64,000 nucleotides of DNA from Lachnospiraceae bacterium (GTDB lineage: Bacteria; Bacillota; Clostridia; Lachnospirales; Lachnospiraceae): contig JAEEIK010000143.1 in NCBI GenBank assembly GCA_016281335.1, positions 12,436 to 76,435 on the forward strand, given 5' to 3'. How positions within the stretch are numbered: position 1 is the first letter of the stretch; the number at the start of each line of letters is the position of its first letter. Positions 16,781-47,233 of the stretch are shown one piece after another. The translations under genes were made by a program, and so were the position numbers. The notes below the pieces were generated by a model. That model was not told the origin of the DNA, did not search any database, and saw only the letters and a list, made by a program, of their open reading frames with translations.

Positions 16781-17330
16781 ATCTTTTTATGGCTTTATTG
16801 GAACAGATAAGGGTTGCGAGTATTATCTTGATCGCATCGGGAATCAGATAGGGCAGAACGCAGTATGAAGCAGCTGCAGCAAAGCCCATACGCGTTCCCT
16901 CTTTCGATACATATACATGGGAAAACCAGAGAGTACCGAACAGATAGCATACAAGAAGCCCGAGAACCATTGCGGGAATCAGCAGCCACGGTTCAGTGGC
17001 TTTTTTAAATAAAAGCTGAAAAATATCCATTATAAAGGCAGTGAAGAGGAAGCCGACCACATATCCGCCGGTAGGACCGGTGAGTGCTCCGAGTCCGCCT
17101 TTAAAACCGGATAATACGGGAAGACCGACTGCGGCAAGCAGTATATATATGAAGATGGCGGCTGTACCGCGGCGCGGACCTAAAAGCCCCACAGTAACGA
17201 AAACAGCAAAGGTCTGCAAAGTGAACGGTACTATGGTGCCTATGGGAGGAGTGCTGATCCAGGAGCAGACTGCAAGAAGTGCCGCAGCCATTGCAATATA
17301 GACAAGATCGGTAGTTTTAGACGGTCTCAT
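16755..17330 (-). CDS. bioY: Biotin transporter BioY
   Basis: VPFTLQTFAV, LGPRRG, GLPVLSG..GG...L.GPTGGY..GF, PYLIPDAIK. Start moved to ATG 17330. BirA site lies upstream. Confidence 0.95.
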   Translation of the reverse strand: MRPSKTTDLVYIAMAAALLAVCSWISTPPIGTIVPFTLQTFAVFVTVGLLGPRRGTAAIFIYILLAAVGLPVLSGFKGGLGALTGPTGGYVVGFLFTAFIMDIFQLLFKKATEPWLLIPAMVLGLLVCYLFGTLWFSHVYVSKEGTRMGFAAAASYCVLPYLIPDAIKIILATLICSNKAIKRSIAPATAG

Positions 17331-17387
17331 ATGTAAGTGATATCCTTTCGAGTCAGTATTGCCACACAGTATGACTGCGGCATAGAA

Positions 17388-17416
17388 AATATACCATATA
17401 GACGGGATAATGTCAA
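17388..17416 (-). promoter_or_regulatory. Sigma-A promoter of bioY
   Basis: Minus strand reads TTGACA-N17-TATATT with an extended TGG before the -10. Confidence 0.75.
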
Positions 17417-17441
17417 CAGTATATTCAAATGAGTTGACAAT
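17409..17441. promoter_or_regulatory. BirA operator overlapping the bioY -35
   Basis: AATGTCAAC-N15-GTTGACAAT matches the firmicute BirA palindrome wwTGTtAAC-N14/15-GTTaACAww. Confidence 0.85.
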
Positions 17442-17499
17442 CAAAAGGGTTAAGGACTTAAACATATACGATATAGATTTTTCGGAATACTGTTGTTAA

Positions 17500-17630
17500 G
17501 GTCAAATGGGTAGCAAGCAGCTTTGCTGCTTGCAAAATGTTGCACAAAAATCGTCCCGGCAAGCTGGCTTGCCGGAGCGATTTATTGTGCAACATAATCA
17601 TACGATCTTCGATCGTATGCCCATTTGACC
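17500..17630. other. 131-bp structured element (four-way junction; MITE-like or ncRNA)
   Basis: 11-bp terminal inverted repeats ggtcaaatggg/cccatttgacc enclose three hairpins at 17513-17533, 17537-17595 and 17599-17619. Confidence 0.75.
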
Positions 17631-46098: not shown

Positions 46099-46946
46099 AA
46101 ACTGCGAAGTTTTGGAAAGCGATATGCCTGCTACTTGTAGTAGGCATTACGTGTTTTATGATACCTTTGAGCGTTCATGCATCCGATACCGACAATAACG
46201 GTGATACGGATGAAAGGACCTACGAGGAGGCACCGGGCAGTGCCGAGGACGGCGATGACCTGACTAAGCTCAATGTCGGCAATACGGTGACCATAGAACT
46301 GAATAACGGAAACGGAAGCATAAACGGCGCGCTGCAGATAGTGTTCATACTGACCGGCATAGCGCTGATACCTTTTCTGCTTCTGGTGCTTACGTCTTTT
46401 ACGCGCATCATTATCGTGCTGCATTTTACCAGACAGGCCCTAAATACGCAGACGGCCCCGCCCAATATGGTGCTGATCGGACTGGCTATGTTCCTCACGG
46501 TCTATATAATGAGCCCTGTATTTATGCAGATCTATAATGATGCGATAGTGCCGATGAATGAAGGCAGCATTGAACTTGAAGAAGCCTTTGATCTCGGAGT
46601 CAAACCCTTAAGGGAGTATATGTATCCGCAGACTCAGGTCAAGGATACTTCGGTGTTCATGGAGATAGCGGGCTTTGACAGCTGGAGCGGGGATCCGGAA
46701 GAAGTGCCCTTAAGAGTTCTGATCCCGGCATATATACTTAGCGAATTAAGGACGGCATTTATTATCGGTTTCCTGATCTATATTCCGTTCCTTATCATTG
46801 ACATGGTGGTGGCCAGTGTTCTTATGAGTATGGGTATGATGATGCTGCCACCCACAACTATATCCATGCCCTTTAAGATACTGCTATTTGTGCTGGCAGA
46901 TGGCTGGAACCTGATAATCGTGAATCTTGTGAGGACGTTTGTTTAA
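46095..46946 (+). CDS. fliP: Export gate protein FliP
   Basis: TSFTRIIIVL, QTAPPN, MGMMMLPP, FVLADGW. Confidence 0.97.
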   Translation: MKTAKFWKAICLLLVVGITCFMIPLSVHASDTDNNGDTDERTYEEAPGSAEDGDDLTKLNVGNTVTIELNNGNGSINGALQIVFILTGIALIPFLLLVLTSFTRIIIVLHFTRQALNTQTAPPNMVLIGLAMFLTVYIMSPVFMQIYNDAIVPMNEGSIELEEAFDLGVKPLREYMYPQTQVKDTSVFMEIAGFDSWSGDPEEVPLRVLIPAYILSELRTAFIIGFLIYIPFLIIDMVVASVLMSMGMMMLPPTTISMPFKILLFVLADGWNLIIVNLVRTFV

Positions 46947-46963
46947 AAAACGGGAGAAATCAT

Positions 46964-47233
46964 ATGAGTATTGATACCGTAACAGAGATAATATCCGGTG
47001 CGATGTACGTGGTGATAATCACGGTGGCTCCGCCATTGCTGATATCCCTGATCGTAGGACTCATAATCAGTATATTTCAGACAGTTACTTCCATACAGGA
47101 GCAGACGCTGACTTTTGTGCCGAAAGTACTGTCCATTTTTCTTGTGCTGATAGTTGCAGGAGGCTGGATGCTTAATAATATCATCACGTATATGGAAAAC
47201 CTGTGGGCTGATTTTTCGATATATATCAGGTGA
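46964..47233 (+). CDS. fliQ: Export gate protein FliQ
   Basis: FQTVTSIQEQTLTFVPK. Confidence 0.97.
   Translation: MSIDTVTEIISGAMYVVIITVAPPLLISLIVGLIISIFQTVTSIQEQTLTFVPKVLSIFLVLIVAGGWMLNNIITYMENLWADFSIYIR

Follow-up and report, generated by a model that had tools for sequence, protein, structure and literature searches.

The 131-bp element at positions 17500–17630 of the window, the 64,000-nucleotide stretch of a Lachnospiraceae genome that we analysed, is a complete copy of an interspersed repeat that folds into a four-way junction on either strand. We consider the most probable reading, at roughly 0.6, to be a mobile palindromic repeat at the level of DNA, either non-autonomous or a relict, and conserved for its shape as a folded single strand or cruciform. 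The family is apparently undescribed so far, and occurs in rumen Lachnospiraceae; a search of the literature on Lachnospiraceae MITEs and on the terminal motif returned nothing relevant. Below, G000 is the window's genome, G013 and G031 are sister species, C numbers denote contigs and L numbers denote loci in relatives.

The architecture of the original prediction, terminal inverted repeats enclosing three hairpins, proved exact when the sequence was re-read. A closing stem, P1, pairs the terminal inverted repeat GGTCAAATGGG (17500–17510) with CCCATTTGACC (17620–17630) over 11 bp. Two side hairpins, A (GCAAGCAGC-ttt-GCTGCTTGC, 17513–17533) and B (CATACGATC-ttc-GATCGTATG, 17599–17619), each have a 9-bp stem and a 3-nt loop, and B contains two GATC sites. 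Between them lies a long, interrupted central hairpin (17537–17595), evident in the sequence, the folds and the alignment, which consists, from its base, of an 11-bp outer stem, a bulge, a 6-bp middle stem, a T.G/C.A internal loop and a conserved apex, CCGGCAAG-CTGG-CTTGCCGG. Reading the - strand places hairpin B first.

Nearly every base of the element had been said to pair, to a degree beyond chance, and this holds on both strands, with z-scores of about -12 to -13. Folded as RNA, the + strand reaches -86.8 kcal/mol, compared with -40.1 +/- 3.7 for shuffled sequences (z = -12.6; 0 of 200 shuffles as good), and the - strand gives z = -12.1. With DNA parameters, the two strands fold at -53.3 and -53.1 kcal/mol (z = -13.1 and -13.0), both into the same four-way junction. 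The lack of a credible open reading frame was likewise borne out, as the only ORFs overlapping the copy are short (40–63 aa) and incidental, and none is conserved. An Rfam (release 15) scan of the region produced noise only, the sole overlap being with U4 at 14.4 bits (gathering score 46; E = 2.7), in agreement with the earlier statement that the element matches no recognised riboswitch or RNA family.

Using BLAST and a covariance model, R1, built on 27 distinct copies, we identified 15 full copies in G000 and about three truncated or partial ones, with 76–91% identity to the window copy, which is itself the best or second-best match of the model. The single-copy outcome that the original prediction had allowed for can thus be set aside. 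The full copies are on contigs C15, C34, C127, C100, C145, C30, C111, C32, C17, C74, C102, C78, C67, C156 and C73, and internally deleted or partial copies are at C32:23257 and C120:43425, with a weak match on C132. Copies are 125–131 bp long, nearly all with a P1 of 11–13 bp. The terminal motif GGTCAAATGGG occurs 14 times in G000 (1.4 expected), each time within a copy or copy fragment, and no hairpin module was found by itself in this genome.

All copies are intergenic, though ORFs cover about 90% of the genome, and their gene contexts are divergent, convergent and tandem. Several, including the window's, lie between divergent promoters, and many occupy short spacers of apparent operons. At about eight loci, an end fragment (a P1 arm, in some cases with the neighbouring hairpin, plus a few flank bases) is duplicated in tandem or nearby beside a full copy, as at C73:17300-17400, C74:13879-13940, C78:11700-11766 and C120:43425-43520 in G000 and at L035, L036 and L040. 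Slippage at hairpins, abortive insertions and nested insertions are possible origins of these duplications.

The window copy sits in the bioY–pilD spacer, between divergent promoters, where it had first been placed. The flanking genes match BioY (PF02632; - strand) and, on the + strand, a type IV prepilin peptidase (PF01478), after which comes PilM. The bioY gene has a strong promoter, TTGACA-17-TATATT, at 17416–17388 on the - strand; bioY itself most likely starts near 17330 rather than at 17465, judging from Met46 of the long ORF and the AAAGGA ahead of it. Overlapping the -35 of this promoter is a palindrome, TGTCAAC-N15-GTTGACA (17411–17439), presumably a biotin-repressor (BirA-type) operator, which is kept in G000, G031 and G013, the remaining spacer not being conserved. 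The copy occupies the interval upstream of the bioY promoter that separates this promoter from the pilus promoter region, and is therefore probably in neither mRNA; it may be a passenger in the spacer, upstream of the bioY promoter and the operator-like palindrome. We also considered an outward -35 in P1 (TTGACC) and rejected it, as it matches at only 9/12 and has a poor -10 in the window. Separately, a 980-nt metagenome contig (run X1) is identical to 16877–17630 and then continues with 226 nt that are not in the MAG. The point of divergence is the exact right end of the repeat (17630); the cause could be rearrangement in a strain, or a jump in the assembly graph where a repeat occurs.

To follow gain and loss, we mapped the flanks of 17 copies from G013 and G031 onto G000. 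Four of the mapped sites are filled in G000 (C67, C32, to which two copies map, C145 and C78), nine are empty (L033, L034, L035, L038, L039, L040, L044, L045 and L053) and the rest are rearranged. Metagenome relatives added another site empty in G000 (L114 versus C43), for an overall 10–11 sites that are empty in G000 and filled in G013, G031 or metagenome relatives; metagenome contigs yielded no empty-site joints. The copy at C32:23257 in G000 is truncated, and L119, a relative, lacks it altogether. The empty-site comparison proposed with the original prediction thus returned sites whose occupancy differs between species, and the window's own site is among them, being filled in G031 (C44:2132-2262, with the left junction, GTTAA followed by GG, shared) and empty in G013 (C93, a 273-nt spacer without a copy). 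Elsewhere in the window, the intergenic site at about 46940–46964 (G000:C15:59375-59399) is empty and has a copy in G013 (L053), flanked there by a tandem array of 4–5 units of 16 nt, each unit combining 6 flank bases with the P1 arm.

The G000 and G031 copies at the window's site differ by nine fully compensated pair changes and two wobble changes. As the spacer around them cannot be aligned (the flanking genes are 69–74% identical), the fold has been maintained in place. What maintains it could be selection, correction of one arm on the template of the other, or a combination of the two. The within-genome identity of 76–91%, together with the persistence of orthologous copies across species, shows that recent activity has been low.

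The fold is also maintained across the family. RNAalifold recovered the four-way junction from the 27-copy alignment, in which standard pairs fill 95.4% of cells, compared with 87.2% in shuffles and 30–37% when partners are slid. Double changes affect 26 of the 48 pairs (10.9 in shuffles) and 92 cells (17 in shuffles), a number that none of 500 shuffles reached; in P1, for example, GGACAAATGGG/CCCATTTGTCC and GGATACGATGAG/CTCCATCGTATCC both occur. The covariation check suggested at the outset therefore found not an unconserved sequence but strong, almost purely Watson-Crick compensation. Outside the internal loop we counted 1150 Watson-Crick cells, 13 G.T cells (about 1%) and 11 A.C cells. In genuine structured RNAs, G-U pairs are widely tolerated, and only on one of the strands. 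In this repeat, wobble pairs and the mismatch that is their opposite-strand equivalent are equally rare, and the pairing constraint therefore looks DNA-like and symmetric between strands.

Comparing copies after orienting each hairpin-B-first revealed flips and swaps of the parts. The hairpin B loop is GAA in 10 copies and the reverse complement, TTC, in eight; the hairpin A loop is AAA or TTT, along with other reverse-complement pairs; and the asymmetric middle of the central hairpin is CT/GA in most copies and TC/AG in at least four. Such changes also separate copies at orthologous sites. Between L039 (G013) and L112, from a metagenome relative with near-identical flanks, the order of hairpins A and B is reversed and the central hairpin keeps both its polarity and its sequence, and the same swap separates C32 (G000) from L036/L037. 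Between the window copy and its G031 orthologue, the order of A and B is kept and the central hairpin has the opposite polarity, while between C67 and L032 both P1 arms have been replaced together. These flips and swaps are DNA rearrangements between inverted-repeat arms. A double exchange, with one crossover in P1 and one in the central stem, would yield exactly the A/B swap observed.

The repeat is patchily distributed. Within the window's genus, it is carried by 3 of 41 species (G000, G013 with about 16 copies and G031 with about 11), and the other 38 have none. Intergenic repeats with such ends had been mentioned, unverified, for Lachnospiraceae, and they do exist: the carriers found by a pattern scan of public genomes are rumen Lachnospiraceae MAGs (RUI052, which is G013; RUI469, which is G031; RUI374; RUI274; and Tb.RUG.499), and in a survey of 400 genera of the family, with one genome each, the repeat is strongly multicopy only in G444, G435 and G365, with strong single copies in G288 and G087. 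Copies from distant genera (at least five other Lachnospiraceae genera) have the identical four-way junction built from largely different helix sequences, with P1 sequences such as GCGAAAC, GGGCAAATG, TATCAGAAG and TATATGCCCG. BLAST searches of PLSDB plasmids and INPHARED phages and a pattern scan of IMG/VR gave no match. Weak model matches in G139, G224, G231 and G380 were rejected, as they are single long hairpins and not the four-way element. These hairpins (L079, L081, L082 and L084, respectively) have in common with it only the apex GGCAAGC-NN-GCTTGCC, which is that of the central hairpin, and some are bidirectional and terminator-like, with A and T runs. They may belong to a wider hairpin family or represent the source module of the four-way element.

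We then examined the copies for signs of transposition. The longest repeats shared by the two flanks of a copy average 2.64, compared with 2.22 in shuffled flank pairs (P about 0.05), no significant improvement, with the compared species too diverged to define exact junctions; flank repeats of at least 4 nt accompany 5 of 25 copies (P = 0.32), and the 5' flank often ends in TAA. No longer element bounded by GGTCAAATGGG was found in G000, where every terminal motif falls in a short copy. A self-BLAST of G000 returned contig-end overlaps and no IS-like large repeats, a weak absence given that MAGs often lose IS copies. In G365, two inverted copies 2.5 kb apart enclose a leuA-like gene and not a transposase. 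Y1 transposase genes (PF01797) are present in 22 of 30 genomes, irrespective of whether these carry the repeat. Those of G000, an IS200-type gene at C89:650-1015 (130 bits to PF01797) and a longer, RAYT-like 257-aa ORF at C2:11476-11811 with a weaker Y1 match, have no sequence similarity to the repeat and no copy nearby. The search for a transposase with the same termini, which the original prediction had called for, thus came back empty. Of its suggestion of a MITE or palindrome-associated mobile element, the broader part agrees with a repeat that is multicopy, intergenic, patchy and present or absent by site; the narrower part is not borne out, and strictly speaking the repeat is no MITE, given that neither a target-site duplication nor a parent IS or transposase was found.

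Under the reading that we favour, a mobile palindromic repeat acting at the DNA level, the form that matters would be the folded single strand or the extruded cruciform. P1 would bring both ends together for a putative trans-acting enzyme that recognises structure, and this enzyme would cut and join at the base of P1, leaving no target duplication. Template switching within a strand and recombination between arms are known behaviours of quasi-palindromes; either could keep the arms of the repeat perfectly complementary, and the same arm exchange could give rise to the flipped loops and swapped hairpins.

An unlikely alternative is that the repeat specifies a structured RNA, as either a family of small RNA genes or a cis-acting mRNA element spread by the repeat. 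In the latter case, the four-way junction would be the functional fold of a stabiliser, an RNase III or other processing site, or a weak terminator; repeat-borne cis elements of this sort have been proposed for ERIC, Correia and BOX. A very stable fold, strong covariation and an architecture kept across genera are what such an RNA would show, and many copies are inside apparent operons. In G000, moreover, the hairpin-B-first reading follows the direction of the genes in 7–8 of 8 tandem-gene contexts, and in this reading a terminator-like sequence, ACGATTTTT, comes after the central apex. This bias hints at an RNA-level or a replication-linked cause, but it is gone from the sister genomes, where the count is 5 against 6. 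The pairs themselves also argue against RNA, with G.U no more frequent than A.C and both strands folding equally well, as does the flipping of hairpin order, loops and central hairpin between orthologous copies. The copies have no conserved promoter or terminator and no Rfam match, and the window copy, set between divergent promoters, is on the upstream side of that of bioY. No RNA run contained the window's sequence, and the one metatranscriptome that we found contains only relatives at 90–95% identity, with no cover on the element. The structured-RNA half of the original prediction is disfavoured by strand-symmetric Watson-Crick pairing and the lack of a robust orientation bias.

A more tentative possibility, somewhat less probable than an RNA, is that a recombination or transposition system not yet discovered acts on the four-way junction, recognising DNA shape rather than sequence and making no target duplication. 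P1 would then hold both ends at the junction, and the flipped, flopped and swapped copies would be side products of the system. In that case, the repeats would be signs of a novel mechanism of DNA movement in gut Firmicutes.

We regard as slightly more doubtful again a DNA site used by the host, such as an inverton acted on at P1 by a global invertase, or a site, perhaps a cruciform, bound by a structure-specific chromosomal protein. The P1 inverted-repeat motif is common to all copies within a genome, the interior is inverted or swapped at the same locus between close relatives, several copies lie between divergent promoters, and conservation in place across species might be due to a function for the host and not to selfish persistence. 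Yet no promoter is conserved inside the copies, some of which separate convergent or tandem genes; sites come and go between species; and P1 covaries and differs between genera instead of having a fixed sequence. The side hairpins swap without flipping the centre, so the variants are not the product of a simple invertase, and no mixture of orientations was seen within a sample, for which contigs only were examined. Finally, a chance palindrome or an assembly artefact, for which one could cite only that the genomes concerned are metagenome-assembled, is refuted by the 200 shuffles, none of which folds equally well, and by copies in independent assemblies from different studies and genera.

These results add a covariation-supported repeat family to the poorly studied, uncultured Lachnospiraceae of the rumen. 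The family is also a warning case, in that a palindrome in DNA can come to show very strong covariation of an RNA-like kind: motif-discovery pipelines would probably label the repeat a structured RNA, whereas its scarce G-U pairs, strand symmetry and flip-flop variants point to maintenance at the DNA level. In practice, such repeats break MAG assemblies and mark intergenic sites that vary between strains.

Several identities with known systems were considered and rejected. Integron attC sites have R''/R' core sites (RYYYAAC...GTTRRRY), fold as a single bulged hairpin and form arrays behind cassette ORFs; we rejected this identity because the copies are dispersed singly, the fold is four-way and P1 has GTCAAAT, not GTTRRRY. 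A retron msr/msd was rejected because no reverse transcriptase is nearby and the element is multicopy, and a Xer/dif-like site was considered and dropped. The central stem matches parS half-sites (TGTTGCAC/GTGCAACA), but it covaries freely, so the match is a coincidence. IS200/IS605 elements have alike subterminal hairpins at both ends, lack a terminal inverted repeat and insert strand-specifically, and a palindrome element derived from them was rejected because hairpins A and B have unrelated sequences, the copies do end in inverted repeats and their orientation is mixed and flips.

Two other comparisons bear on form and on mutation. The inverted terminal repeats of parvoviruses (AAV-type) offer an analogy of form only, with an outer palindrome around small inner ones and, as in AAV 'flip' and 'flop', two side hairpins that occur in both orders. 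Unlike them, the repeat is chromosomal, bacterial and interspersed, has three inner hairpins rather than two and no linked Rep/HUH gene that we could find, and can keep the polarity of its central hairpin during a side-hairpin swap. Small hairpin inversions and quasi-palindrome template switching are known from chloroplast spacers and E. coli hotspots, and would explain the reverse-complement loops, the concerted changes of arms and the missing G.T intermediates; as a mutational process, however, template switching explains neither the multicopy spread nor the conserved four-helix architecture.

The repeat also has likenesses to two kinds of bacterial repeat. With Correia/NEMIS of Neisseria, ERIC/IRU of enterobacteria, RUP and BOX of pneumococcus and bcr1 of the Bacillus cereus group, the repeat shares a size of about 100–170 bp, a non-coding, interspersed and intergenic nature, tens of copies, a terminal inverted repeat, stable predicted folds and a patchy occurrence among related species. 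It differs from these MITEs in having no detected target-site duplication or parent IS with matching ends, in folding as a four-way junction with Watson-Crick covariation across genera rather than as one long hairpin, and in having sub-modules that flip and swap. Like REP/BIME/REPIN sequences, it is an extragenic mosaic of short imperfect palindromes with covarying arms and no target duplication detected in its flanks, and it forms clusters and local duplications of end fragments. Unlike them, it has about 15 copies rather than hundreds of a 20–40-bp palindrome, no conserved 5' GTAG-type tetranucleotide, and three hairpins that are unrelated in sequence and closed by a terminal inverted repeat; and, unlike in REPIN-RAYT systems, no Y1-transposase gene is flanked by the repeat, with carriers and non-carriers equal in Y1 presence. 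As none of the defining tests (target duplication, parent IS and RAYT) was passed, we file the repeat under neither family, and conclude that it resembles both MITEs and REP/BIME sequences in lifestyle.
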